Source of the DNA: an uncultured bacterium
GTDB lineage: Bacteria > Bacteroidota > Ignavibacteria > OLB7
Direction: 5' to 3'
NCBI GenBank assembly: GCA_966128725.1
Contig: CBHYLN010000005.1
Span: forward strand, 6,576 to 70,575
DNA length: 64,000 nt
Below the pieces are notes generated by a model that saw only the letters and a list, made by a program, of their open reading frames with translations, was not told the origin of the DNA and made no database searches. This document shows positions 2,415 through 49,676 of this stretch, one piece after another. A program made the translations under genes and the position numbers. Within the stretch, counting starts at the first letter, position 1. The number at the start of each line of letters is the position of its first letter.

Positions 2415-3716
2415 TCAGATTCGGCGCGCGGCCGCCCGGCGTTCCACGAACTCCAGCACGGCACGGGCACGCTCGGCCCACGAGAATTTTTCCACGCGCT
2501 TCAACGCCTGTTCGGCCATGCCGGCAAAGGCATCCGGGCGCTCCAGCACACGGCGAATGGCAACGGCCAGCGCGTCGGGCGCATCCGGCGGCACCATCAA
2601 CGCAAGGGGCGGATCGCCCAGCACCTCGCGGAGCACGGGATAATCCGCCGTGATGATCGGGCGCGCGGCCGCCATGTAATCAAACAACTTGCCCGGCGAA
2701 CGATACCTGTTCAGTTCGATGCCGGAGGGGTAGTACATCACCAGCAGATCGGCCGCGGCCAGATAGACATGCACGTCGGTTGGCGCCACGAACCCGACGA
2801 ACACAACGTTGGTTATGCCATGCCGTTCCATCCGTTCGCGGTACAGACACACGTGGTCCGCACGCCCGCCCACCATCACCAAACGCACACCTTCGGGAAG
2901 ATTGCGCGCGGCCTCGATCAGGTACTCAACCTCGCGATATCCCCAGAAGATCTTGCCTGCATACACAACCAGGCGCTCCCCGGCTGCAAACCCCAGGCGC
3001 TGCCGTGCTTCGGCCTTGGAAACGCGCGCCTGTTCCACCTGCTCCAGATCGATCCCCTGATGCGTGCCGATCACACGCTCGCCATCCAGCCCAAGCTCGC
3101 GTACCAGATCGTGCTCCAGCGCGTACGAATTGGCCACCACGCCGTCAACACTGCGCAGCACCAGCCGCTGCATCGGGCGCTTGGGCATCACATGCGCCTC
3201 GAACAGCACCAGCACCCGCTTCCAGGTGATCGCGCGCAGCACGATAAAGGCCATCGCCGGACCGTAGTTCTTCGCGAACAATACAACGCGCTGCCCGCGG
3301 CGAGCGCGCCATACATAACCGATCGCGTACAGCGTGTTGGCGAACAGCCGTGTAAGCCCCCAACGCACGGGGCCGTTATCCTGATCGCGCTGGTGAATGC
3401 CAGTCTGAAATGTGCGCACGGTGAAGCGGTCGCGGACGCGATACGGCGCCAGCGGGTTGCCCGTGTTTGCCTCGCCGTCCAGCGGCCGAATCCCGAGCGT
3501 CACCAGCTCCAGATCAACCCCGGCCCTGTGCACCGCCTCGCAGAAATGGACGATGCATTGGCGATCCACACGCGGCGCCTGAATGTCCGACGGCGTGAAG
3601 TACAGGAACTTCAACGGGGGCACGGCCGCCGTGCCCGTGGCACGCACCGCCGGCTCGCCTGCGGCGCCCCGTGCGGAAGGTTCGGCATCGCTGCTCTGGT
3701 ATGGGCGATTGCTCAC
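2415..3716 (-). CDS. Glycosyltransferase, GT-B fold (group 1-like)
   Basis: 433-aa ORF with a GTG start that overlaps the upstream stop (GTGA at 3713-3716). The C-terminal 'YPSGIELNRYRSPGKLFDYMAAARPIITAD' is typical of group-1 transferases. The start is uncertain. Confidence 0.7.
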   Translation of the reverse strand: MSNRPYQSSDAEPSARGAAGEPAVRATGTAAVPPLKFLYFTPSDIQAPRVDRQCIVHFCEAVHRAGVDLELVTLGIRPLDGEANTGNPLAPYRVRDRFTVRTFQTGIHQRDQDNGPVRWGLTRLFANTLYAIGYVWRARRGQRVVLFAKNYGPAMAFIVLRAITWKRVLVLFEAHVMPKRPMQRLVLRSVDGVVANSYALEHDLVRELGLDGERVIGTHQGIDLEQVEQARVSKAEARQRLGFAAGERLVVYAGKIFWGYREVEYLIEAARNLPEGVRLVMVGGRADHVCLYRERMERHGITNVVFVGFVAPTDVHVYLAAADLLVMYYPSGIELNRYRSPGKLFDYMAAARPIITADYPVLREVLGDPPLALMVPPDAPDALAVAIRRVLERPDAFAGMAEQALKRVEKFSWAERARAVLEFVERRAAARRI

Positions 3717-4639
3717 GTGAGCGACGGAGGTTGGTTGCTGGATGCCGCCGTGCGCCGAGGCGCGGCGCGGAGGAATCCAAGCCTGTTGCGGAGTTCGTCG
3801 AGGAAGTACTGCCTGTACACGCGCGAGAAGATCGTGCCGCCGTATCTGCGGCAGATCATCAACCGTTCACGCCGACCCTCGCGCGAGATCGCGGCGGTTT
3901 TGCAGTCGTCGTAGTAACGCAGATTGGCCAGCAACGGCTCGATCCTTCGCACCGTGCCGTTGAGCCCCATGCGGATCCACAGGTCGCGGTCCATGGAGTA
4001 ATGCAGATCCATGTCCACCTCGCCCACGGCACGATACGCATCGGCGCGCATGAACACCGCCGGCTGCGGAATGAAGTTCCACGTGTTGACGAGGATCTTC
4101 AGATCGAACTCGCGACTGGGGTATGCATTGCGAAGCGATCCGTCGTCGTTGATGAGATTGCACGAGCCGTAGACCATCGCAAGCGAAGGATCGGCCGCGA
4201 ACGCCAGCGCGGCCTGGACAATTGCCCCGGGGTGATAGGTGTCGTCGCTGTTCAACCACGCGATGATCTCGCCGGTTGCGGCACGGAACCCCTTGTTGAT
4301 CGCATCGGACTGCCCGCGGTCGCGCTCGGAAACCCACGATGCCAGCCACGGCTCGTAGCGCCGTATGATATCAACCGAGCCATCGGTGCTGCCACCGTCA
4401 ACGATGATGTACTCCAGATTGGGATACCCCTGCAACAGCACCGTGCGAATCGTCTCCTCGATGAACCGGGCCTGATTGTACGAGGGCGTGATAATCGACA
4501 CCCGCGGCCACGGGCGTCCGTCGGGCATGGCAGGCGGGATCGCCGGCGAACCAACGGTCCAGGGCCAGCCGCTCAGGCCTTCCGGAGGCGCCGGCAGCGC
4601 ATCAACGGTTATGGCGTTCATCGGTTCGGTTTGCGACAT
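3713..4639 (-). CDS. Glycosyltransferase family 2
   Basis: 'VSIITPSYNQARFIEETIRTVLLQGYPNLEYIIVDGGSTDGS' and 'AWLNSDD' (DxD) are classic GT2 N-terminal domain motifs. Confidence 0.85.
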   Translation of the reverse strand: MSQTEPMNAITVDALPAPPEGLSGWPWTVGSPAIPPAMPDGRPWPRVSIITPSYNQARFIEETIRTVLLQGYPNLEYIIVDGGSTDGSVDIIRRYEPWLASWVSERDRGQSDAINKGFRAATGEIIAWLNSDDTYHPGAIVQAALAFAADPSLAMVYGSCNLINDDGSLRNAYPSREFDLKILVNTWNFIPQPAVFMRADAYRAVGEVDMDLHYSMDRDLWIRMGLNGTVRRIEPLLANLRYYDDCKTAAISREGRRERLMICRRYGGTIFSRVYRQYFLDELRNRLGFLRAAPRRTAASSNQPPSLT

Positions 4640-13803: not shown

Positions 13804-14790
13804 TCACAGATACTGGGCCAGATTGGCGCGATAGTACTCAACCGTGCGGCGCAACCCTTCGGCCAGATGCACGCGCGGCGCCACGCCGAGCATGTCGCGG
13901 ATGCGCCTGTCGTCGGCATAATAATCGCCGATATCGATGCGGCGCCTGTCCTCCGGGAACGCACGCAACACAAACTCGCCGCCGCCGGCAGCTGCAACAA
14001 CCATCTCGGCCAGCTCGCGAAGGCTTACCGGCCGTTCGCCACCAAGATTGAACACCTCACCGGCGGCGCGCTCGTGGACCGCGGCGGCAAGCAGGGCATC
14101 AACGGCGTCGTCAACGTAGGTGAAGTCGCGAAGCTGATCGCCCTCCCACACCTCGAACGGCATGCCCTGCACGGCCAGGCGCACCCACACACCCAGGAAC
14201 GTCTGGCGGGCGTCCTTCACGCGCATCCGCGGGCCATACGTGTTGGTAAGGCGCAGCGAGCACGAGCTGATGCCGTACACGTTGTTGTACAGGATGTGGT
14301 ACCACTCGCCGGCCATCTTGTTGATGCCGTTCACATCCACCGGGCGCAGGATGTGGCGTTCGTCCACCGGCAGGTAATCGGGCCGGCCGTACAACTGGCG
14401 CGTGCTGGCGAACACGATCCGGATACCGGGATTGTATCGCCGGCATGTCTCCAGGATGGAAAGCTGCGCGCGGCAATTGATGTCCAGATCGGTGAACGGA
14501 TCGGCCATGGAATCCATGTGGCTTGTCTGGCCGGCCAGGTTGAACAGGTAGTCGCGCCCCTGCACCAGATACCGCATGGAGTGCTCGTCGCGCACATCCG
14601 AAATGTTCACCGTAACGCGCCCTTGCAGGCCATCGATGTTGAACAGATTGCCGCCGTACTCGGGGATCAGGCTGTCCACCAGCAGAACATCGGCGCCGGC
14701 ATCGGCAAGCCTCGCGGCCAGATTGGAGCCGATGAAACCCAGGCCGCCGGTGATAAGCACGCGCGCGCCGTTGAACGATGTATCAGCCAT
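13804..14790 (-). CDS. NAD-dependent epimerase/dehydratase (extended SDR)
   Basis: Start at MADTSFNGARVLITGGLGFIGSN, with 'YGINKMAGE'-type YxxxK. It overlaps the upstream stop by 8 nt. The longer track ORF (to 14994) lies inside the neighbouring gene. Confidence 0.85.
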   Translation of the reverse strand: MADTSFNGARVLITGGLGFIGSNLAARLADAGADVLLVDSLIPEYGGNLFNIDGLQGRVTVNISDVRDEHSMRYLVQGRDYLFNLAGQTSHMDSMADPFTDLDINCRAQLSILETCRRYNPGIRIVFASTRQLYGRPDYLPVDERHILRPVDVNGINKMAGEWYHILYNNVYGISSCSLRLTNTYGPRMRVKDARQTFLGVWVRLAVQGMPFEVWEGDQLRDFTYVDDAVDALLAAAVHERAAGEVFNLGGERPVSLRELAEMVVAAAGGGEFVLRAFPEDRRRIDIGDYYADDRRIRDMLGVAPRVHLAEGLRRTVEYYRANLAQYL

Positions 14791-16051
14791 TGGCTTCTCC
14801 GGTTGCAGCAACGGTGCCGGGGTTGCCCAGCGGTTTGCGGATTTCCTGCCACATGAACGCCAGCATGAACACCACCCACACCGCCGACAGCAGCACGGCC
14901 GAATCCAACACGCCCACCGCACGGCTGAACGGCGGGCCGTTGCCATCGATGCCGTAGAACAGGTACAGGTTGATGTTGGTGAACAACACCACAAACGCGG
15001 AGATCACCGCATAACGGCTGTTGGCCAGATAGATAAGGATGGCGACGATGCCGGCCAGGTACAGGTGATTTTCGTGTACGCCGATGTTGAACGTGAAGTA
15101 CGAGAGGAATCCCAGCAACGCCGTGACCATCAGATTCTCGAAGGTCTTCTGGCGCCGTACGGCCAGCCACAGCGCGGCCAGATACGACGCGCCGAACAAC
15201 GCACGCGAGACCCACGTGATCACCGGCCCGGCCTTGCTGATATACCGTGCAAGGCCATCGTTCAGCGGCGCGTATTGTTCCGGCGCAACCAGGTGCAGCA
15301 CGTACGTCACGATCCAGTTCAGGTTCAGCGCGTTCGCGCTGGGATAGCGGTGCGACATCGCCCGCACAAACGCGCGGGCAATCTCCACGCCATAAATCGA
15401 GAACAGGATGCCAACTATCACGGCGCTTGGCAGAACAACCTGCATCAGAAAGCGCCGCCAGTTCGCCGTCCGAATGCTCGCAAACGAGTTGATCTCCAGC
15501 AGGTGGATGCACATGAACGGCAGCAGCAACACCGACTGCCACTTGATCATGAAGCTGATGGTGTACAGGATTGAGAACGCCGTGAACTTTCGCCTGCTCA
15601 GCATCAGCATCGCCAGCACGAACGTTGGCGTGAAATAGGCATCCAGATACCCGAGCGCCACGCTGTTCAACGTCAGCGCCAGATGCACACATGCGGTAAG
15701 CACCAGGTTGCGTGTGTAGGCGTAGATGGCCGCCGAGGTCAGGAACAGGAACAACACCAACGACCACTTGATGCCAGCGAATATGTCGCCGCCGAACATC
15801 GCCGAGATCTTGGAGCTGGCAAACAGCATGAAGATGGAGATCGGCGGATAATCCCCCTTGTCGGCCGGGTATCCCTGCACCACCCCATACTCGTGGGCAT
15901 TCTTGATCCACGTGGTCCAGATCCCCACATCACCGGTGCCGGGCGAGTTCACGAACGTCAGCGAGAAGACGGCGATCAGAGCAAAGAGCAGCACGGCCCA
16001 GATCGTGGTCCGATTGGTTGCTCCGCCGATTTGTTCAGTGTATGGATTCAT
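14783..16051 (-). CDS. Polytopic membrane protein, probable GT-C-fold glycosyltransferase (DUF2029/GT87-like)
   Basis: About 10 predicted hydrophobic helices. The first periplasmic-loop-type motif is 'GYPADKGDYPPISIF'. It sits next to a polyprenol-P GT2. The ATG at 16051 has an AAGGA RBS. Confidence 0.6.
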   Translation of the reverse strand: MNPYTEQIGGATNRTTIWAVLLFALIAVFSLTFVNSPGTGDVGIWTTWIKNAHEYGVVQGYPADKGDYPPISIFMLFASSKISAMFGGDIFAGIKWSLVLFLFLTSAAIYAYTRNLVLTACVHLALTLNSVALGYLDAYFTPTFVLAMLMLSRRKFTAFSILYTISFMIKWQSVLLLPFMCIHLLEINSFASIRTANWRRFLMQVVLPSAVIVGILFSIYGVEIARAFVRAMSHRYPSANALNLNWIVTYVLHLVAPEQYAPLNDGLARYISKAGPVITWVSRALFGASYLAALWLAVRRQKTFENLMVTALLGFLSYFTFNIGVHENHLYLAGIVAILIYLANSRYAVISAFVVLFTNINLYLFYGIDGNGPPFSRAVGVLDSAVLLSAVWVVFMLAFMWQEIRKPLGNPGTVAATGEANG

Positions 16052-16230
16052 CCGGGCATCCTTGAGCAATCTTCCCAGTCAGTCTGCTGAAATACTTCCG
16101 TTCGATGTTGTCCATCAGGAGGCATAGACAAGCGTGCTGACCAAAGCGTAGCAGAGCCGGCGTGGTACGTTCACGGTGTCGCCTGGTAAGCGGGACATTG
16201 AACAACTCCGAAAGAGCGCCATCGTCAGGC

Positions 16231-16751
16231 CCTCCTACGGAGGCCTATCCACAAGCCCCGGCAGGGGGCGAACCGTCTGTAGAAACCCGGGCACACAACC
16301 ATCAACAAGCCCCGGCAGGGGCGAACCCTACAGCCGCAATTCACGGCACGCTCCGATGGAGCTTCTATTCGCTTCGAGAACATCTCTGCTACAGACAGGT
16401 GCCTCCTCGGAGGCCTATCCACAAGCCCCGTCAGGGGCGAACCGTCTGTAGAAACCCGGGTACACAACCATCCACAAGCCCCGTCAGGGGCGAACCGTAT
16501 GGCCGCAATTCACGGCACGCTCCGATGGAGCTTCATTCCGCTGCCGGAGCATTTCTGCTACAGACAGGGGCCTCCTACGGAGGCCTATCCACAAGCCCCG
16601 GCAGGTACGAACCGTCTGTAGGAACCCGGGCACACAACCATCAACAAGCCCCGGCAGGGGCGAACCGTACGGCCGCAACTCACGGCACGCTCCGATGGAG
16701 CTTCGATCCACTTGACGTGCATCTCTGCTACAGACAGGTGCCTCCTGACGG
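16231..16751. repeat. Tandem array: 3 full copies plus an 11-nt stub of a 170-nt non-coding unit
   Basis: The anchor 'aggcctatcc' recurs at 16241, 16411 and 16581, and a fourth unit begins at 16741. Identity is above 90% outside a 15-nt block. The period is not divisible by 3. Confidence 0.9.
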
Positions 16752-16845
16752 GCACACCGATTTGTCGAAGCGCGCGTTACCACCCTGTCAGACTGTTGAA
16801 CTCATCGGGGCCAGCGGTCTCCCGGCGCGGAGGCACACCAGGCTC

Positions 16846-17640
16846 TCAGTTGCGCTTGCGCGAGCGATGGTAATCGCCCTTCGAGAGCTGTTTCTCCAGC
16901 CAGGCGTACAGCACGATGAAGAGATATCGGCTCCCCATCTCCTTCAACTTCAACTTCGATTCGCCGGTTGTGCGATTGGTCCACGAGATTGGAAGCTTCG
17001 CGAATGTATAGCCGCGCACGATGGCCTTCAGCGGTAGCTCCACGGTCAGGTTGAAGTGCGCCGAGAGCAGCGGCTGCACACCATCGATCACCTCGCGCCG
17101 ATAACACTTGAAAGCGTTGGTGATATCGTTATGGTCTATCCGGAACAGGACCTTGATGAACCAGTTGGCGAGGCGATTGATCGCCAGCTTGTGTTTCGGA
17201 TAATCGATCACCCTGGCGCCGGCCACAAATCGCGAGCCGAACACGCACTCGTACCCTTCCTGGATCTTCCGGTAATAGGCAACGATATCATCCGGAGCGT
17301 CGGAGAGATCGGCCATCACAATGCAGACGGCATCGCCGCGGAAACTCTCCAGCCCCTTGCGCACGGCAAACCCGAAGCCATGCGGCGGCGTGTTGTTCAC
17401 GTATCGGAACGATGGGTACCGCGCGGCAAGGCTGCGCAGAATGGCCTCGGTGCCGTCGCTGCTGTTATCGTTCACCACAACGATCTCGGCGTCGGCGATG
17501 CCCTCCTCCTCGAACTTCCGAAGGATGGCCGTGCAGGTGCGCTCCACGCCGCCCTCCTCGTTGTGGGCGGGGATCACCACGGAGAACCGTACGGCCGAGT
17601 ACGGCCCGCCCTCGGCAATCTGGCTGGCGCTCAGGTCCAT
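16846..17640 (-). CDS. GT2 polyprenol-phosphate glycosyltransferase (Dpm1/ArnC/GtrB-like)
   Basis: '[21 protein letters not shown]', '[11 protein letters not shown]' and '[10 protein letters not shown]' are typical of Und-P/Dol-P sugar synthases. Confidence 0.85.
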
Positions 17641-39032: not shown

Positions 39033-39114
<82 letters not shown>

Positions 39115-39199
39115 CAATCATTGCCCGGTAGTCACGCGCGAAGGTGATTGCCATTGCATGCCGGCCCGGAAGTTCCGCACGGCATGCGCGCCGACATTC

Positions 39200-39240
39200 A
39201 AACGCCCGGCCGGTGTTGCCGCATGGGCGTTTGTTGTTGC
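39200..39240 (+). terminator. Hairpin + G/T-rich tail downstream of tRNA-Leu
   Basis: aaacgccc...gggcgttt stem followed by gttgttgc. Confidence 0.4.
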
Positions 39241-39355
39241 AGGGGCAGTGAAACGATCTGGCAATTCGTTGCCGCCGGCTGCACGCGCTACGGCGGCGCG
39301 CAGATCACACGTTGTTCTTTGTTGTTGTTTCAGAACGAGCATATCGCACAGCAGA

Positions 39356-40750
39356 ATGGAATCCACGATCCGTCAGACCAACTCAATCAAGTTTGAGCTC
39401 GATGTCGCGCTTACACCCGCCGAGCTCACCCCATATCTCGATTCGGCCTATCGCGAAGCGCAGAAGCATGCATCATTGAAGGGCTTCCGCAAGGGTAAGG
39501 TTCCGATCGGCATGATCAAGAAGCTCTACGGGCAATCGTTGGAGCGCGAAGCCTACGAGGAGGCCGTGCAGCAGGAATTCGCGCGTGCGATGCAGACTCA
39601 GGATGTACAGCCGGTTGGCTCGCCCGCGATCACCAAGCTGGACCGCACCGACGACGGCGGGCTTTCCTTCACCGTGGCCTACGAGACGCTGCCCAAGGTG
39701 GAGCTGACCGATTACAAGGGGCTGCCGGCCCGCAAGGTGTTCCATGTGATCACCGACGAAGAGTTCGAGGCCGAGATGGCGCGCATTCGCGAGTCGAACG
39801 CCACGCAGGAGGATGAGCCGGCCGAATCCGTTGCCGACGAGAACCACATCGTGAAGGTGAATCTCCAGAAGCTGGAGGCCGGCGTGGTGGTGGAGGAAAA
39901 CGTGATGAGCGACATGCCGGTATACCTTGCGCGGCACGACGTCAACCCCGAGCTGAAGGCGATGCTGCTGAACACGAAGGTTGGCGACACCTTCCGTATC
40001 GACCTGCCCACCGGCGAGGACGCCACGATGATCAACTACGAGGTGACCGTGCGCGAGATCCACCGCATGGCGCTGCCGGAGCTGGACGACGCGTTCGCCG
40101 CGCAGTTGATGGGCCGTGAGGACGCCACCGTCGCCGACCTGCAGGATGCCGTACGTCAGGGAATCATGGGCGAATACGAGCGCCGTTTCTCCGGGTTCTT
40201 CCGCGATGAACTGATCAACGCGCTTATCGAGCGCCACCCGTTCGATGTCCCCGATGTGTTCGTGGCCGAGGTCATGAAGTCCTTCGTGGACGACATGCGC
40301 CGCGGCCCGAAGAAGGAGTTGCCGAAGGATTTCGACGGCGAGCGCTTCGTTCGCGAAATGCGCCCCACCGCCGAACGCACGGCCAAGTGGGCGATCCTGC
40401 GCGACCTCATCATCGAGAAGGAAGGGCTGACGCCGGAAGAGAGCGATTACGAAGGCCTGGCCGATATCGAGGCGCAGCGCACCGGCATCGACTACGACAC
40501 GCTGATCGGGTACTTCAAGAAGTCCGACAAGATCCGCGATCGGATTGTGGCCGAGAAGGCCGTGCAGTTGCTTGAGGACTACGCCGTGGTCACCGAGGTC
40601 GAGGATCGCACCATGCCGCAGATGACCGCGCCGGACCATATCGGCCACGATCACTCGGATCACGATCACGCCGATCATGACCATGCCGACCACGATCACT
40701 CGGATCATGATCACGCCGATCACGATCACGCAGGCCACGACCACGCGTAA
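39356..40750 (+). CDS. tig: Trigger factor with a C-terminal His/Asp-repeat tail
   Basis: Start at MESTIRQTNSIKFELDV. The ribosome-binding signature 'GFRKGKVPIGMIKK' is present. The central PPIase-region is followed by the C-terminal arm domain, then the tail HIGHDHSDHDHADHDHADHDHSDHDHADHDHAGHDHA. Confidence 0.9.
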   Translation: MESTIRQTNSIKFELDVALTPAELTPYLDSAYREAQKHASLKGFRKGKVPIGMIKKLYGQSLEREAYEEAVQQEFARAMQTQDVQPVGSPAITKLDRTDDGGLSFTVAYETLPKVELTDYKGLPARKVFHVITDEEFEAEMARIRESNATQEDEPAESVADENHIVKVNLQKLEAGVVVEENVMSDMPVYLARHDVNPELKAMLLNTKVGDTFRIDLPTGEDATMINYEVTVREIHRMALPELDDAFAAQLMGREDATVADLQDAVRQGIMGEYERRFSGFFRDELINALIERHPFDVPDVFVAEVMKSFVDDMRRGPKKELPKDFDGERFVREMRPTAERTAKWAILRDLIIEKEGLTPEESDYEGLADIEAQRTGIDYDTLIGYFKKSDKIRDRIVAEKAVQLLEDYAVVTEVEDRTMPQMTAPDHIGHDHSDHDHADHDHADHDHSDHDHADHDHAGHDHA

Positions 40751-43755: not shown

Positions 43756-44613
43756 ATGGCTATCACACGTAACCCGGATTCCAGCACATTCAACCCGGCA
43801 CCGGCCACCCCTGTACGCCAGGAGGTGGCGGCGCTTATCGCCCAGCGTCTGGAGACCGTCGAGCAACAGGAGAACGTGCGCATCATCCTTGCATGCGAAT
43901 CGGGCAGCCGCGCGTGGGGCTTCCCCTCGCAGGACAGCGACTACGATGTCCGGTTCATCTACGTTCATCCCAAGCAGTGGTATCTGTCCATCGATGCCAG
44001 CACAACACGCGACGTTATCGAACGGCCCATCGAGCAGGACATCGATCTTGCAGGCTGGGATCTGCCCAAGGCCCTGCGCTTGCTGCGTAAATCGAACCCG
44101 CCGCTGCTGGAGTGGCTTGCCTCGCCCATCGTGTATCGCTGCAACGAAACCCTCGCCGGGCCATTGCGTGCGCTGGCATTCCAGCATTTCCAGCCGGCCA
44201 CGCTCCGCCAGCACTACTTTCACATGGCCGAAGGCAATTACCGCGAGTACCTGCTTGGCGAGCTTGTGCCCGCAAAGAAATATTTCTACGTGCTCAGGGC
44301 GGCGATGGCCGCGTTGTGGGTGCTTCAGGATCGTGGCCCCGTGCCGATGGAATTCGATCACCTTGTTGCCGCCATCGTCACCGATGCCGCCGTGCTCGCC
44401 GAGATCCAGTCGCTGCTGGAGCGCAAACGCGCCGGCATTGAGCTGGCGCCACAACCGAGCATTCAAATCCTGAACGCCTTCATCGAGGATGCGTTCCAAC
44501 AGGTTCGGGCCGCACCGCTGCCGCCGCGCCCCACCGACGCGCAAGCCGAGGAGTTCACAAATACATTGAACGCATATTATCGTTCGGTGCTCGACGCCAA
44601 CGAATCACAATAG
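43756..44613 (+). CDS. Predicted nucleotidyltransferase (Pol-beta superfamily, PF10127/RlaP-like)
   Basis: 'ILACESGSRAWGFPSQDSDYDVRFIYV' (GS...DxD nucleotidyltransferase core) and 'KALRLLRKSNPPLLEWL'. Confidence 0.7.
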   Translation: MAITRNPDSSTFNPAPATPVRQEVAALIAQRLETVEQQENVRIILACESGSRAWGFPSQDSDYDVRFIYVHPKQWYLSIDASTTRDVIERPIEQDIDLAGWDLPKALRLLRKSNPPLLEWLASPIVYRCNETLAGPLRALAFQHFQPATLRQHYFHMAEGNYREYLLGELVPAKKYFYVLRAAMAALWVLQDRGPVPMEFDHLVAAIVTDAAVLAEIQSLLERKRAGIELAPQPSIQILNAFIEDAFQQVRAAPLPPRPTDAQAEEFTNTLNAYYRSVLDANESQ

Positions 44614-44734: not shown

Positions 44735-44834
44735 GGGGTCAAGTCCTGTGCGACCGTGCCATACCCAACCCCGTCAGGTCCGGAAGGAAGCAGCGGTCCG
44801 TATAGGCAGGTGTGACACAGATCAGCTTGACCTC
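44735..44834 (+). ncRNA. ffs: Signal recognition particle RNA (small 4.5S type)
   Basis: Contains the conserved domain IV core 'gtcaggtccggaaggaagcagc'. The 5' ggtcaagt pairs with the 3' agcttgacc, followed by a T8 run. Boundaries are approximate. Confidence 0.8.
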
Positions 44835-45209
44835 TTTTTTTTGTCCATCCCAGTCCACTGTCCGTGGCACTCATCGGCAACGATGTGCCGACGATGCGCT
44901 AGCTAACGGGATTCACCGTGCGCGCGCCCAGAGCCCTTCACCGGCACCGGGTCGCATCGCGCCTAAACCCGTCGCGCGCCAGCGTCGCACCGCCGAGAGG
45001 AAGTTCGCAGCGATGCGTACCCGATCGTACTGCGGGCATCTGATGCCGTGTCCATTCGCAGGACATGCACCTGATGCCCCACAAGGAAAGTTTGTTCTCT
45101 CCTCGCCCGCTTCTCGATTGGCTACGTCCCAACCCTGGTTCTCTCCGCCGCGCATCTCCTCGAACGCCTTCGCTCGTGCCCGCCCGTCCACGGACCCACA
45201 GATCCGTAC

Positions 45210-48200
45210 ATGAAAAAAGATATCATCATCAACGCGACCTCCACGGAGATTCGTGTTGCCATTACCGAGGATGACCGCCTTGCGGAAATCTTCCTCGAAG
45301 TTCCGGACAAAGAGCGCCACGTCGGTTCTATTTATCTCGGTCGGGTCGAACGTGTGGTTCAGGGTATGAACGCCGCCTTCATCGATATCGGAGAACCCCA
45401 GGATGCCTTCCTGCATTTCTCCGACGTCGGCTCGGCGCTCGACGAGTTCAAGGATCTGCTGGACGACCGCGACGATGACGACGACGATGATGCCGATGAG
45501 CAGGACGATGCCGAAACCACTACGGCCGCCGCTTCAAGCACCGAGCGCGGAGGCCGAGGCTCGCAGAAGAGCCGCGGCGGAGCCGAGCGCAAGCACACCG
45601 ATACCACTTCCGATCAATCCGACCAGCCACAGGATACAGCACCCGAACGGCGTGACCGTGGGCGCGGGCGTGACCGCAAATCCGACCGCCGGGGCGGGCA
45701 CGACAACGATGCTCCGCGTGCCGAGCGCGCGCCGGGTAGCGACCTGGAAAGCCGAGCCGATGGCACCGAACGCGACGAACGCCCACGGGAGGACCGCCCC
45801 GAACGCGAGCGCGGCCGGGGTGATCGCCGCGATGGGCAGAGTCGCCGCGACGGGCAGGGCCGCGGAGGCGCTGATCGTGCATCCGACGGCGCACGATCCG
45901 ATGGCCGGCGCGATCAGCGCGCCGATGCCGCAGCGGGCTCGCGCCCGGTGGATGCCGATGCGGACATCGAGGATGTTGATCCCGTGGATGCCGACAATGC
46001 CACGGCCGAAGGCGATCACAACAGCGAAGAAGCTCACCGCAAGCGCCGCCGCAAGCGCGGCCGCCGCGGTGGCCGTGGCCGCAACCGGCGTGGGCGTGAC
46101 GAGGAAGGCGTAGCAGGCGATCGCGACACGACACGTGACGCCGCCGATGATCGAGACACGGACGATCGCGGCGACGATGACATGGATGACGACGATCGGG
46201 ATGCCGAGGCACAGCCCGCCGCGCACCGAGCCGAGGCCCCGCAGCGCGAACATCGCGGCGATCGCAACGATCGGGACAACCGTGGGCGCGGCGGCAATCG
46301 GAACGCGCCGCGCGTACAGGAGGCGCAGGCCGGGCACGACGCCGACGACGATGAACGCGACGACGACATGCCCGAGGGCGATGCTGGAACCGATAATGCC
46401 GGCGAGGGCGTCGACGCCGAAGGCCGTCCACGCCGCCGCAGGCGCCGTGGGCGCCGGGGCGGGCGCAACCGGCGCGAAAACAGCGATGGCGGAAATCGTG
46501 AGAACACCGCCGAGCAGCCGCGTGGCGAGCAAGCGCGTGGCGAGCAATCACGTGGTGAGAACATTCGTTCCGAGCGGACACCGGACCAACGTGGCAACGA
46601 CGCCGGCCGCGGCAACACCGCGCCACCCGATGACCGACGTGGCGAACGGCGCGGCGACGGCGATCGCCGCGATGATAACCGTCGCGGCAACGACCGGCGC
46701 CCGGATGACCGGCGCACCGACGAACGCCGTCCGGAGGGTCGCCCGGAGAGCCGTAGTACCAACGAGCGCCACGCCGACGATCGGGAAGGCCAGCGCCAGC
46801 ACGGCAACGAACGGAGCGCAGGCGGCGCACGGACCGAACAACCCAGAACCGAGCAGCCCCGAGCCGAACACCCGCGAGCCAATGATCGCGGGCACGGCGG
46901 ACGCCGGGACGAACGACGGGATGATACGCGAGGCACCGCGCCGGAAACCCCGGCAGCACCTCGTGCCGAGGCAGTGGCACCGAACGACGATGTAGCGGGC
47001 GCCGATCGTCCGGCAGGCGGCCGCAAGGCACGCCCGTCACGGCGCAAGCCGGCCGAGGACACACCATCGCTCTTCCCCGCCGACGAACCGCACCAGGCCG
47101 CCGAACCGGCCGCAACGCCACCCCCCAAGCCGAAGCGCGCCTCGACACGCAAGGCGCCGGCCGCCGCGAAGGACACTCCGCCTCCGGGCGAGACCCCGGC
47201 CAATCCAGCAGGCAAGCCCAGCCGGCGAGGCAAACCCGCCGGACGGCGCGGAGGTCGCGACGGGGATTCCGACGCACCGATCAAGGGCTCCACGGCCGAC
47301 GCGAAGCTCCCGACGTTTCAAACGAAGCGCTCGGGTGAGGTAACCATCGCGCTGGAGAAGGGCCAGGACGTGATCGTGCAGGTAACACGCGAATCGTACG
47401 CCTCGAAGGGTGTGCGTGTTACCACCAAGGTGAGCCTGCCCGGGCGATTCCTGGTGCTGCTGCCGCTGGACCCCGCGATCGGCATTTCGCGCAAGGTGCA
47501 GAACATGAAGGAGCGCCGCCGCCTGCGCCGCATCGCACGCGGCATCCTTCCGGAAGGGCATGGCTGCATCATCCGTACGGTTGCGCAGGACAAGGAAGAA
47601 GCCGTGATCCGCCAGGATCTGATGAAGCTCATCGAAAACTGGCGCGAGATCGAGCAGAAGCTGAAGGATACCAACGCCCCTTCCCTGCTGTACAAGGATC
47701 AGTCGATTGCCGCAACGGTGATGCGCGATCTGTTCACGCCCGACACAAACCGCGTGGTGATCGACAACAAGGCCCTGTATACCGAGATCCGCGACTACGT
47801 GGAGTGGGCCGCGCCCGGCCTTGCCGACAAGGTGGAGCTGTACACGGGAAGCCGTCCGATCTTCGACGAGTACGGCATGGAACGCGAGATGCAGAAGATC
47901 GCCGAGCGCCGCGTGTACATCCCGTCCGGCGGCTACATCATCCTGGACCAAACCGAGGCCATGATGGTGATCGACGTCAACTCCGGCCGATATGCGGGCA
48001 AGAAGGATCAGGAACTGAACTCGCTGCGAACCAACCTGGAGTCGGCACGCGAAATCGCCCGCCAGATTCGGCTTCGCGATATCGGCGGGTTGATCGTGAT
48101 CGACTTTATCGACCTGTACGACGAGAAGAACCGGAAGAAGGTCTACGACGAACTGAAGAAGGAAATGCGGCGCGACCGGGCCAAATCCGTGGTGCTGCCC

Positions 48201-49676
48201 ATGACCCAGTTCGGCCTGGTGCAGATGACACGCCAGCGCATCCGCCAGCAGGTTGTGCAGACGATGTCGGAGCCATGTCCCGTGTGCGCCGGCAGCGGCC
48301 TGGTGCAATCGCGCAGCACCGTCGCACGCAACATCGAGCGCTGGTTGCAGCGCTTCCGCGAGGGTTCGCGCGAGTTCCGCCTTACGCTCTCGGCACATCC
48401 TCACGTCATCAACTATCTCTCCGAAGGCGCCAACAGCAGGCTGACGGCGATGATGATGAAGTACTTCGTGCGCCTGAAGGTTGTGCCCGATGAATCGCTG
48501 ATGGTGTCGGAGTTCCATTTCTTCTCCACGCACCACCAGGCCGATATCACCGAGAAATATCTGGAGGATATCGCCGCACGCAAGCGCGAGGAAAAGGCCG
48601 CCAAGCGGCTCGAGGCCAAGCGCAAGGACGAACAGAAGAAGGGCGATGACGAGCGCGATGCCGCGGCCGGCCCACAGAAGCGCGGACCACGCCGGGATGA
48701 TCGCCGTGGCGGTGAGGAACGCAGAAGCGATGACCGCAGGGCCGATGGACGCCGTGGCGAGGAGCGCCGTGGTGAAGAACGCCGGAGTGACGATCGTCGT
48801 GGTGAAGAGCGTCGTGGCGACGATCGCCGGAGCGAGGAGCCTCGGAAGGATCGGCCCGACCGCAGGGACGGACGCCGCCCGAACGACAGGACGGGCGCGC
48901 GCCAGGGGGACCGCCGACCCCAGCACGCCGAGCCAACCGAAGCAGCCGATGCTTCGGCACGCTCGCAGCAACCAGCGGCACAGGACGCCAATGGGCAGCC
49001 AGCCGAGGGCGGCCGTCCGGCTTCCAGCGGTCGCCGTGGCAGCCGTGGTGGGCGCGGGCGCGATAACCGCCGAGGTGGCCGCGGCCGCGATGAACATGCA
49101 AGCGGCGAGCCAAGGGGCACACAGGCACCGCAAACCAATGCGGCCGATGTGCCCGCGCAAACCGATCGCCCCGAACGGGCGGATGCCGGAAGCGGCGCCG
49201 AGAAGCGACCCGATCGCAGCAGGCCGGCGCGTGGACGCGATCGCGCCGTCACCGAAAGCGGTGGCGAACCCTCGGCACGCGGAACGGCCAGGCCCGATGT
49301 TCGCCGGGAGGCCCCGACCGAACGGACCACCATCGAGCGTCCGGTAGCGGAGCAGCCCGCCGAGGCCGCCGCAAGCGCCCCCAAGAAGCGTGCGGGCAGC
49401 CGTAGTACCAAGAAGGCCGCCACACCCGATCGGGAGGCACCGGCAGCCGCCGAAGCCGCCCCGCCGGCCAAGAAACGCGCCGCACCGCGACGCACGGCCG
49501 AACCGGAAACCGGCGCCGCAACCGTGGCCGAGAAACCCAAGCGCGCATCACGGGCAAAGAAGAAGCCCGAGACGGACGCACCGGCAGGGGCTGCCGCCAC
49601 CGGCGGCGGCGAAAAGCCCGCCCCGGCAAAGGCACGCCGGGGAAGCACCCGTGGCCGGTCGGCCCCGGAGGAATAA
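45210..49676 (+). CDS. rne: Ribonuclease E/G family endoribonuclease with very large low-complexity regions
   Basis: The N-terminus has 'MKKDIIINATSTEIRVAITEDDRLAEIF...GSIYLGRVERVVQGMNAAFIDIG' (S1 start). The core resumes at 'EKGQDVIVQVTRESYASKGVRVTTKVSLPGRFLVLLP'. It also has 'YIILDQTEAMMVIDVNSG' and the Zn-link 'CPVCAGSG'. R/D/E/G-rich tracts fill the rest. Confidence 0.85.
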   Translation: MKKDIIINATSTEIRVAITEDDRLAEIFLEVPDKERHVGSIYLGRVERVVQGMNAAFIDIGEPQDAFLHFSDVGSALDEFKDLLDDRDDDDDDDADEQDDAETTTAAASSTERGGRGSQKSRGGAERKHTDTTSDQSDQPQDTAPERRDRGRGRDRKSDRRGGHDNDAPRAERAPGSDLESRADGTERDERPREDRPERERGRGDRRDGQSRRDGQGRGGADRASDGARSDGRRDQRADAAAGSRPVDADADIEDVDPVDADNATAEGDHNSEEAHRKRRRKRGRRGGRGRNRRGRDEEGVAGDRDTTRDAADDRDTDDRGDDDMDDDDRDAEAQPAAHRAEAPQREHRGDRNDRDNRGRGGNRNAPRVQEAQAGHDADDDERDDDMPEGDAGTDNAGEGVDAEGRPRRRRRRGRRGGRNRRENSDGGNRENTAEQPRGEQARGEQSRGENIRSERTPDQRGNDAGRGNTAPPDDRRGERRGDGDRRDDNRRGNDRRPDDRRTDERRPEGRPESRSTNERHADDREGQRQHGNERSAGGARTEQPRTEQPRAEHPRANDRGHGGRRDERRDDTRGTAPETPAAPRAEAVAPNDDVAGADRPAGGRKARPSRRKPAEDTPSLFPADEPHQAAEPAATPPPKPKRASTRKAPAAAKDTPPPGETPANPAGKPSRRGKPAGRRGGRDGDSDAPIKGSTADAKLPTFQTKRSGEVTIALEKGQDVIVQVTRESYASKGVRVTTKVSLPGRFLVLLPLDPAIGISRKVQNMKERRRLRRIARGILPEGHGCIIRTVAQDKEEAVIRQDLMKLIENWREIEQKLKDTNAPSLLYKDQSIAATVMRDLFTPDTNRVVIDNKALYTEIRDYVEWAAPGLADKVELYTGSRPIFDEYGMEREMQKIAERRVYIPSGGYIILDQTEAMMVIDVNSGRYAGKKDQELNSLRTNLESAREIARQIRLRDIGGLIVIDFIDLYDEKNRKKVYDELKKEMRRDRAKSVVLPMTQFGLVQMTRQRIRQQVVQTMSEPCPVCAGSGLVQSRSTVARNIERWLQRFREGSREFRLTLSAHPHVINYLSEGANSRLTAMMMKYFVRLKVVPDESLMVSEFHFFSTHHQADITEKYLEDIAARKREEKAAKRLEAKRKDEQKKGDDERDAAAGPQKRGPRRDDRRGGEERRSDDRRADGRRGEERRGEERRSDDRRGEERRGDDRRSEEPRKDRPDRRDGRRPNDRTGARQGDRRPQHAEPTEAADASARSQQPAAQDANGQPAEGGRPASSGRRGSRGGRGRDNRRGGRGRDEHASGEPRGTQAPQTNAADVPAQTDRPERADAGSGAEKRPDRSRPARGRDRAVTESGGEPSARGTARPDVRREAPTERTTIERPVAEQPAEAAASAPKKRAGSRSTKKAATPDREAPAAAEAAPPAKKRAAPRRTAEPETGAATVAEKPKRASRAKKKPETDAPAGAAATGGGEKPAPAKARRGSTRGRSAPEE

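Follow-up and report, generated by a model that had tools for sequence, protein, structure and literature searches.

A tandem array of palindromic units in a glycan gene cluster of an uncultured Ignavibacteria bacterium is probably a REP/REPIN-type repeat cluster

Results

A tandem array between two glycan genes

The DNA analysed here, hereafter the window, is a stretch of 64,000 nucleotides from an uncultured bacterium of the Ignavibacteria (lineage OLB7; GenBank assembly GCA_966128725.1, contig CBHYLN010000005.1, positions 6,576 to 70,575 of the forward strand). Its subject is a tandem array of 170-nt units in a 0.8-kb gap between two genes for glycan synthesis. An earlier reading by a model that had seen only the letters (the sequence-only reading) described a head-to-tail array of three structured units at 16231-16751. 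This was borne out by Tandem Repeats Finder (TRF), which on the 64-kb window reported a period of 170, 3.1 copies, 88% matches and a score of 834 for the array, compared to 159 for the runner-up. A separate repeat search of the window gave three copies with a spacing of 169/170 nt, and the anchor AGGCCTATCC was located exactly where it had been claimed, at 16241, 16411 and 16581. Core words of 22 and 24 nt had five and three matches in the window, respectively (0.00 expected from shuffles), all of them confined to the array.

The array begins 95 nt past the stop codon of a family-2 glycosyltransferase gene (GT2) and is followed by the gene of a GT-C-like membrane protein. Both genes belong to a long minus-strand cluster that encodes epimerases, methyltransferases, aminotransferases, glycosyltransferases and a Wzm/Wzt-type ABC exporter. 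The features of the gap and its flanks are as follows (window coordinates; L004 and L013 are homologues described below).

14783..16051, minus strand: 422-aa GT-C-like membrane protein, downstream flank, context only; some homologues are named Gpi18-like or ALG6/ALG8
16228..16756: whole cluster, consisting of a leading He-type hairpin, three 170-nt units and a decayed terminal hairpin (TRF, repeat search, nhmmer matches 16246-16413, 16416-16584 and 16586-16753)
16245..16414: unit 1, in the phase Ha to He
16415..16584: unit 2, with Ha and Hb sub-repeats identical over 29 nt including the GTCA loops
16585..16754: unit 3, with Ha degraded (GGTAC) and the terminal hairpin decayed (GCCTCCTGACGGGCA)
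16425..16443 (units 1 and 3: 16255-16274, 16595-16613): Ha and flank, GCCCC-GTCA-GGGGC-GAACC in unit 2
16444..16451 (also 16275-16282, 16614-16621): left arm of the long-range pair, GTCTGTAG
16478..16496 (also 16309-16327, 16648-16666): Hb and flank, second copy of the 29-nt sub-repeat
16502..16516 (also 16333-16347, 16672-16686): hairpin Hc, GCCG-CAATTCA-CGGC (loop CAAYTCA across units)
16519..16531 (also 16350-16362, 16689-16701): hairpin Hd, GCTCC-GAT-GGAGC, invariant in every unit, its stem common to L004 and L013
16534..16553 (also 16365-16384, 16704-16723): hypervariable 20-nt segment
16558..16565 (also 16389-16396, 16728-16735): right arm of the long-range pair, CTACAGAC
16569..16585 (also 16228-16245, about 16401-16414): hairpin He, GGCCTCC-TAC-GGAGGCC, inverted counterpart of Ha
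16846..17640, minus strand: family-2 glycosyltransferase (GT2), upstream flank, context only; Pfam PF00535, E = 1e-24

Anatomy of the unit

Each unit forms five to six GC-rich stem-loops with stems of 4-7 bp. The hairpin GCCCC-GGCA/GTCA-GGGGC (loop GKCA) occurs twice per unit, 53-54 nt apart (16255/16309, 16425/16478 and 16595/16648). Unit 2 carries the GTCA loop in both copies, and in Ha of unit 3 GGTAC replaces GGGGC. In all three units GTCTGTAG pairs with CTACAGAC and encloses 106 nt. The hairpins, the long-range pair and these substitutions had all been listed beforehand, and every one of them was found at its mapped position.

The unit is built from two inverted arms, each with an outer 5-bp GC hairpin, GAACC and GTCTGTAG, around three inner hairpins. 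One arm, hairpin-GAACC-GTCTGTAG on the left, is an inverted copy of the other, CTACAGAC-AGG-hairpin on the right, and the unit is dyad-symmetric. The "long-range stem", which had been put forward as a feature of an RNA, is therefore simply the pairing between the two inverted arms. A single unit gives a more stable fold than its dinucleotide shuffles on either strand (z = -4.0 on the plus strand; z = -2.6, with -74.5 kcal/mol, on the minus strand, which is the operon sense). On the minus strand, two hairpins per unit precede U-rich tracts and are predicted to be terminator-like, among them two of the Hb sites (GCCCCTGCCGGGGC TTGTTGATGG). The GC content of the array region (0.60-0.61) is the same as that of the neighbouring genes, so there is no compositional anomaly. 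A 22-nt inverted repeat with 73% complementarity joins the decayed last hairpin of the array (16738-16759) to the sequence just past the GT2 stop codon (16815-16836) and could pair with it in an alternative stem that spans the first part of the gap.

Thirty of 171 columns vary between units, and 11 of the 30 fall within a 20-column stretch that comes right after the invariant GCTCC-GAT-GGAGC-TTC on the plus strand. Identity between units is 55-60% inside this stretch and 89-93% outside it (scan-statistic P ~0.003). Every version of the variable segment is able to form its own hairpin of 4-6 bp, and none has a match or target elsewhere in the 64-kb window. In the simplest reading, complementarity was lost here and constraint relaxed, which leaves the conservation of the opposite linker unexplained. 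Unit 2 has two 29-nt sub-repeats without a single difference, GTCA loop and ATCCACAA flank included, while in units 1 and 3 this flank is restricted to the first sub-repeat. The comparison indicates gene conversion inside unit 2. Neither this, nor the clustering of differences, nor the dyad symmetry had been pointed out in the sequence-only reading.

Coding potential, promoters and known elements

Three open reading frames (ORFs) cross the gap, at 16162-17037 (+, 291 aa), 16484-16783 (-) and 16225-16467 (-). None of them had a Pfam match, and a word-indexed search of 5.8 billion proteins together with a full HMMER scan of 1.84 billion representatives returned no homologues beyond the window's own ORF and its counterpart in a sister strain (L012, see below). 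The 291-aa ORF reads the three units in three different frames (3 x 170 = 510, a multiple of 3), and its counterpart had been called as a 199-aa gene; both are spurious gene calls created by the repeat. The array is non-coding, as had been proposed. Each unit has an ATG ahead of the variable stretch on the minus strand, and we also rejected a coding reading from it: the frame is not the same in all units, unit 2 runs into a stop within the hairpin loop, L004 and L013 have no such ATG, and Pfam gave no match.

No sigma-70-like promoter was predicted in 15800-17100, with a consensus that may not be that of the host, and no Bacteroidota-type TAnnTTTG motif was seen inside the units by inspection. 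In NsiR1-type arrays of small RNA (sRNA) genes, each unit has its own promoter and terminator. An array of independent sRNA genes was rejected on this account, since the units have no sigma-70-like promoter of their own (the host consensus may differ) and only weak 5-bp terminator-like hairpins. The option of an sRNA array in the sequence-only reading also finds no strand-consistent structure in the units.

The array matches no known RNA family, as that reading had supposed: an Rfam scan of the window at gathering thresholds and a scan of the gap at E <= 10 gave no match, and a resemblance by eye to group II intron domain V was rejected because Rfam did not match it. Nor is it an integron attC site or CALIN, with R''/R' core sites RYYYAAC ... 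GTTRRRY, as no GTTRRRY occurs on either strand in 16201-16800. A CRISPR array was rejected: the gaps between copies of the 29-nt sub-repeat alternate between ~25 and ~87 nt, the units agree over most of the "spacer" sequence, and no cas gene was found among ~50 window ORFs. The roughly 50 window ORFs that we compared with Pfam are housekeeping or glycan genes; among them was no transposase, Y1/HUH enzyme, RAYT (PF01797), reverse transcriptase, integrase, recombinase, nuclease, Cas, TnpB, IscB or Argonaute.

The array differs in a sister strain

The same repeat stands at the same site in an independent assembly, on a 3.2-kb contig from another sample (L012) whose GT2 protein is identical to that of the window and whose flanks are 98.5% identical to it. 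The gap of L012 holds just two units of ~116 nt each, without Ha. In both, the sequence separating the two sub-repeats is missing, and with it the left arm of the long-range pair. One of their variable segments is identical to that of unit 2 and the other is that of unit 1 with two changes; their order is reversed, and the version of unit 3 is absent. Copy number and structure of the array differ between near-identical strains.

Homologues at unrelated loci

Scanning 185,579 species-representative genomes (596 Gb) with the pattern AAGCCCCGNCAGGGGCGAACC gave ten loci. By our own estimate, 20 specified bases would match about once by chance in 596 Gb, with a few more matches in GC-rich genomes. 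Two of these loci, L006 and L009, and the viral match L011 showed no further similarity and are probably chance matches. Pattern scans of viral contigs yielded 0 to 1 match, the single one being probably due to chance, and blastn against plasmids found no match.

One locus, in a metagenome-assembled genome (MAG) of the Cytophagales (L004), is homologous across the whole unit and holds one copy. It has in common with the unit a 32-nt identical block, both arm sequences, the GCTCC-NNN-GGAGC hairpins and the terminal hairpin. A metagenome scan with a strict two-arm pattern added a sole further locus, again with one copy, on a metagenome contig (L013). The window units, L004 and L013 share a ~160-nt architecture, Ha-GAACC-GTCTGTAG...GCTCC-NNN-GGAGC...CTACAGAC-AGG-He. 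A hidden Markov model (HMM) of the unit matched L004 with E = 5e-45 (2e-20 on the opposite strand) and L013 with E = 6e-40 (1e-20 on the opposite strand).

The minimum-energy fold of both homologues is one long imperfect hairpin, of 65 bp and -104 kcal/mol in L004 and of 54 bp in L013, of which only the 10-bp arm pairing and the outer hairpins remain in the window units. The stretch equivalent to the variable segment is, in L004 and L013, the partner strand of this long palindrome. G-U asymmetry and fold energies were contradictory between copies as indicators of the strand. Rfam matches of L004 and L013 to miRNA precursors were spurious, and these, like a DUF3800-III match with E = 0.36, were regarded as long-hairpin noise.

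L004 lies between convergent genes, one PNPOx-like and the other an HGLS gene (2-oxoadipate dioxygenase-like), and L013 lies 3' of a gene of the metallo-beta-lactamase fold; neither context contains glycan genes. Homologous single copies thus occur at unrelated loci in other bacteria of the FCB group (the Bacteroidota/Chlorobiota group). The sequence-only reading had named occurrence of the unit at dozens of unrelated loci as the sign of a simple repeat, and the finding of L004 and L013 agrees with this qualitatively. Upstream of the orthologues of GT-C, which are at most 49% identical (46-49%) and lie in different contexts, the element is absent.

A second palindrome family, GGCGTTTTRGGC...GCCYAAAACGCC, was seen at 1359-1641 of L004 and at 91-121 and 297-327 of L013. 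It borders the element on both sides in L013, and in L004 it builds an adjoining 283-nt long hairpin. The intergenic regions of L004 and L013 are thus mosaics that combine palindromes of several types.

A module shared with Acido-Lenti-1

Read on the minus strand, Ha and its flank give GGTTCGCCCC-N4-GGGGCTT, a 21-nt core common to modules that resemble Acido-Lenti-1 (RF01687), and this core recurs in MAGs of Acidobacteriota, Alphaproteobacteria and Bacteroidota. Rfam finds Acido-Lenti-1 in three of the loci (L001, L002 and L008) at 43-46 bits. The match in L001 includes the 21-nt core as 3' hairpin, and those in L002 and L008 lie 20-70 nt from the core, in L008 on both strands. In L001, L003 and L005 the core, GGUUCG-CCCC-N4-GGGG-CUU, is the 3' hairpin of Acido-Lenti-1 or of sub-threshold modules. 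A covariance model that we built from 42 published RF01687 seed sequences recovered the controls L001, L002 and L008 at 38-46 bits (46 over the core in L001) and scored 24.6 bits in L003 and 22.2 bits in L005 exactly over the core.

The window array itself had no Acido-Lenti-1 match in Rfam, either at the 37-bit gathering threshold or at E <= 10, and none to our own model with filters off at E <= 10. The Acido-Lenti-1 consensus consists of an 8-bp 5' hairpin, a CUA-N9-CG linker and a 3' hairpin of 4-5 bp followed by CU. The window unit resembles only the end of the linker and the 3' hairpin (CUACAGACGGUUCG-CCCC-UGCC-GGGG-CUU); in place of the 8-bp 5' hairpin it has CCCGGG or a 4-bp stem with a 7-nt loop. 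With no match to either model and the 5' hairpin missing, we rejected the window units as members of Acido-Lenti-1. Judged by sequence, they share one module with elements of this type, GGUUCG-CCCC-N4-GGGG-CUU with a linker ending in CUA.

The broader family has its own repeat-like features. In the seed, Lentisphaera araneosa contributes more than 50 Acido-Lenti-1 copies, many of which follow one another in tandem at spacings of 74, 110-115 or 192-200 nt, and Koribacter versatilis about a dozen dispersed ones (supplement file 183 of Weinberg et al. 2010, PMC2864571). A 165-nt element that is sharply bounded and has a closing stem occurs at least four times in one MAG. L008, a Balneolaceae MAG, holds two tandem 378-nt composites (868-1584) with Acido-Lenti-1 modules on both strands and the 21-nt core, and a second pair of repeats with ~335-nt spacing 1.6 kb away (3167-3750). 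At all six broad-family loci with both flanks identified, the element lies between convergent genes, an arrangement that we estimate for roughly a quarter of intergenic regions by chance. Being multi-copy, tandem, on both strands and between convergent genes, Acido-Lenti-1 behaves in a way that suggests a repeat of the repetitive extragenic palindromic (REP) type rather than an sRNA gene. The Acido-Lenti-1 hairpin is followed by CUA(N), which on the opposite strand reads NTAG plus palindrome.

Other features of the window

The best named relatives of the trigger factor encoded in the window are from a "Chlorobi bacterium" and "Candidatus Kapaibacterium" at 61% identity, and Bacteroidota proteins are ~34% identical. 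A syntenic relative with a related trigger factor encodes a protein with a type IX secretion system (T9SS) tail. The 3' end of the trigger factor ORF (39158-40750) contains an in-frame 15/45-nt tandem repeat at 40634-40746 (CACGATCACGCCGAT), which is predicted to give a repetitive His/Asp-rich C-terminal tail. A tRNA-Leu (anticodon TAG) lies at 39033-39115 (+), just upstream of this gene. The bacterial small signal recognition particle (SRP) RNA (RF00169, 56.9 bits) is at 44737-44835 (+), with a gene of the RlaP family (RNA repair pathway DNA polymerase beta family, E = 2e-87) directly upstream at 43756-44613 (+). The RNase E/G ORF at 45210-49676 (+) has 1488 aa, compared to 1118 aa in the syntenic relative L014, and contains several short tandem repeats, e.g. 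at 48750-48840 and 46511-46559; this suggests either a long, repetitive low-complexity extension or a start that has been predicted too far upstream.

Discussion

A cluster of REPIN-like palindromes

We think it probable that the array is a locally amplified tandem cluster of REPIN-like extragenic palindromes, that is, a REP cluster or bacterial interspersed mosaic element (BIME). We base this reading on how the array fits the REPs surveyed by Di Nocera et al. (2013, PMC3733652). According to this survey, REPs are short stem-loops (20-40 bp) whose inverted dimers are able to fold into larger structures, and in clusters the dimers are reiterated in tandem with intervening DNA. They lie mainly downstream of ORFs, between unidirectional or convergent genes, and vary in size from strain to strain (PMC3733652). 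The window array likewise consists of short GC-rich stem-loops with inverted pairing in tandem units, is extragenic and 3' of genes, and varies between strains. REPs and BIMEs have many dispersed genomic copies; of the window family one array is known in 64 kb, and the related broad family is multi-copy. The outer stems of the window unit have only 5 bp. One REP family, that of T. roseum, is clustered at few loci instead of being dispersed (PMC3733652).

According to Bertels and Rainey (2011, PMC3116915), REPINs are REP doublets that form hairpins and are mobilised by RAYTs. The unit resembles them in having two inverted arms and a spacer that together give one long hairpin, most clearly in L004 and L013, and in being non-coding and extragenic. 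It differs in its greater length (155-170 nt) and its three inner hairpins; much of the complementarity between the arms is gone from the window units, and the cognate single-copy RAYT of a REPIN was not found among the ~50 window ORFs.

Repeat anatomy, symmetry, homologues at unrelated loci, a module that a multi-copy family has as well, a location 3' of a gene and instability all support the reading as a REP/REPIN-type cluster, as do the folding potential on both strands and the gene conversion indicated in unit 2. No alternative class fits: Rfam gives no match, and no promoter is predicted within the units, which also show neither a coding signal nor an anomalous composition. Most likely, then, the units represent a repeat family that had not been catalogued before and belongs to the REP/REPIN class, and a new RNA gene is less likely. 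Of the three options in the sequence-only reading, an sRNA array, a cis-regulatory platform and a selfish repeat, the last agrees with this evidence. That reading had set a REP identity aside, yet GC-rich stem-loops, inverted arms, homologues downstream of unrelated genes and instability between strains are hallmarks of REPs, REPINs and BIMEs.

Several observations weigh against a REP/REPIN cluster. Neither the element nor a GCYCC-N3-4-GGRGC hairpin was found in the 64-kb window outside the array, no copy occurs in ~43 kb of a relative with a 62%-identical trigger factor (L014-L016), and the exact unit family was seen in only four contigs over all collections searched. GTAG- and CGTC-tagged REPs carry the unpaired tag directly at one end of the stem (PMC3733652). 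In our units both arms contain GTAG and the left arm contains CGTC (GAAC-CGTC-T-GTAG), 4-9 nt from the outer hairpin; GTAG stands 9 nt from that hairpin and does not abut a conserved stem, and on the inner side the two tags have just CCCGGG or the variable hairpin next to them. A genome typically has a single RAYT gene; the ~50 window ORFs include neither a RAYT nor a transposase, in a 64-kb sample that says little about the genome. No target-site duplication flanks the array, the sole shared flank word being a 5-mer ~30 nt outside its ends. Simple recent duplication does not predict a hypervariable 20-nt stretch, and covariation rests on three lineages and is uninformative. Finally, part of the difference in L012 could be an error of the assembly path, because the coverage of this contig is 3.4x.

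If the array is a REP/REPIN-type cluster, it may have grown and shrunk by unequal recombination or replication slippage between identical hairpin modules, and the family may be spread by an enzyme encoded elsewhere, RAYT-like or not. A minus-strand operon transcript would run through the cluster, and its GC-rich stem-loops could then act as barriers to 3'-to-5' exonucleases or as weak terminators. The upstream, GT2-containing message would as a result be more abundant than the downstream GT-C message. Provided that it is co-transcribed with the operon, the cluster is probably an RNA-decay barrier or a weak attenuator.

Alternative explanations

A purpose-built cis-acting RNA platform, i.e. a processive antitermination, attenuator or RNase-processing element that is selected as RNA and sets the GT2:GT-C ratio, is unlikely. 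It would account for an array between two co-directional genes of one polysaccharide cluster, for the stable fold of the operon-sense transcript, for the two terminator-like minus-strand hairpins per unit and for the retention of the array at this locus in L012. However, the homologues stand in unrelated contexts without glycan genes, GT-C orthologues have no such element upstream, and no Rfam cis-regulatory family matches. The element is also symmetric and folds on both strands, with the stronger z on the plus strand, its G-U asymmetry is inconsistent between copies, and the long-range stem is missing from the L012 units. EAR (eps-associated RNA) of Bacillus is a processive antitermination RNA inside an exopolysaccharide operon; it is single-copy, strand-specific and conserved with its operon. 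The window array is similarly a structured non-coding stretch in an intergenic gap of a polysaccharide operon, but unlike EAR it is symmetric and tandem, occurs in unrelated contexts and has no Rfam match. By description, the BOX elements of pneumococci (boxA-boxB(n)-boxC) and the neisserial NIMEs resemble the array as modular intergenic repeats: they are structured, in some cases occur within operons, and combine sub-modules in a tandem number that varies. Their sequences and hosts are unrelated.

We regard a classical miniature inverted-repeat transposable element (MITE) as quite improbable. The unit would then be a non-autonomous derivative of a DDE-type insertion sequence (IS) with ~27-nt terminal inverted repeats that was later duplicated in tandem. 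The arms are indeed inverted repeats of ~27 nt (GCCCCGTCAGGGGCGAACCGTCTGTAG vs GCCCCGTAGGAGCGACCTGTCTGTAG in L004), a length of 155-170 bp and an intergenic location are in keeping with a MITE, and the 32-nt block identical in distant hosts suggests horizontal spread. On the other hand, no target-site duplication was seen around the array or, on visual inspection, beside L004 and L013, the fetched loci contain neither a parent IS nor a transposase, and the REP-type hairpin build and the link to Acido-Lenti-1 modules fit a REP/REPIN better.

An array of trans-acting sRNAs or guide RNAs is, in our view, very improbable. Such an array would combine a conserved scaffold of ~150 nt with a 16-20-nt seed or guide that differs per unit, processed from the operon transcript. 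This would explain why differences between units cluster in one 20-nt stretch (P ~0.003), why two of the variable versions are kept in L012, one of them identical and the other with 2 changes, and why small hairpins and a terminator-like one come after the variable stretch on the minus strand. Against this, the units have no sigma-70-type promoter and, by inspection, no TAnnTTTG motif, the variable segments match nothing else in 64 kb, and no effector-like gene (Cas, TnpB, IscB, Argonaute, RT, recombinase) is among the ~50 ORFs. In L004 and L013 the equivalent stretch is the partner strand of a long palindrome, and the single-copy homologues lie between convergent genes. We give even less credence to a version in which guide- or sponge-like RNAs with such a scaffold and variable seed would be cut from the operon transcript without an adjacent effector gene, and in which GGUUC-hairpin-UU modules, including those of Acido-Lenti-1, would be putative binding sites of a protein partner conserved across phyla.

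A mis-joined or inflated repeat in the metagenome assembly is hardly credible: the two assemblies disagree on number, length and order of the units, with 3.4x coverage in L012, but they independently put the same repeat family at the same site, the 30 of 171 differing columns suffice to resolve the units, and L004 and L013 are independent homologues.

Significance

Most likely, the interpretation of this locus moves from an array of structured RNAs of no known family to a REP/REPIN-type repeat cluster, which is real but fairly ordinary, and the array opens no long-standing question. For annotation, the 0.8-kb gap is better marked as a repeat region, and the 199/291-aa gene call is spurious. 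The finding adds an uncatalogued family of palindromic repeats from a host in a poorly sampled Kapabacteria/Chlorobi-like lineage of the FCB group, and Acido-Lenti-1, an orphan "sRNA" of Rfam, may be a REP-type repeat. If transcribed, the cluster may determine the relative expression of two glycan-synthesis genes, in a way that varies between strains; if true, this would be a small source of variation in surface-glycan expression.

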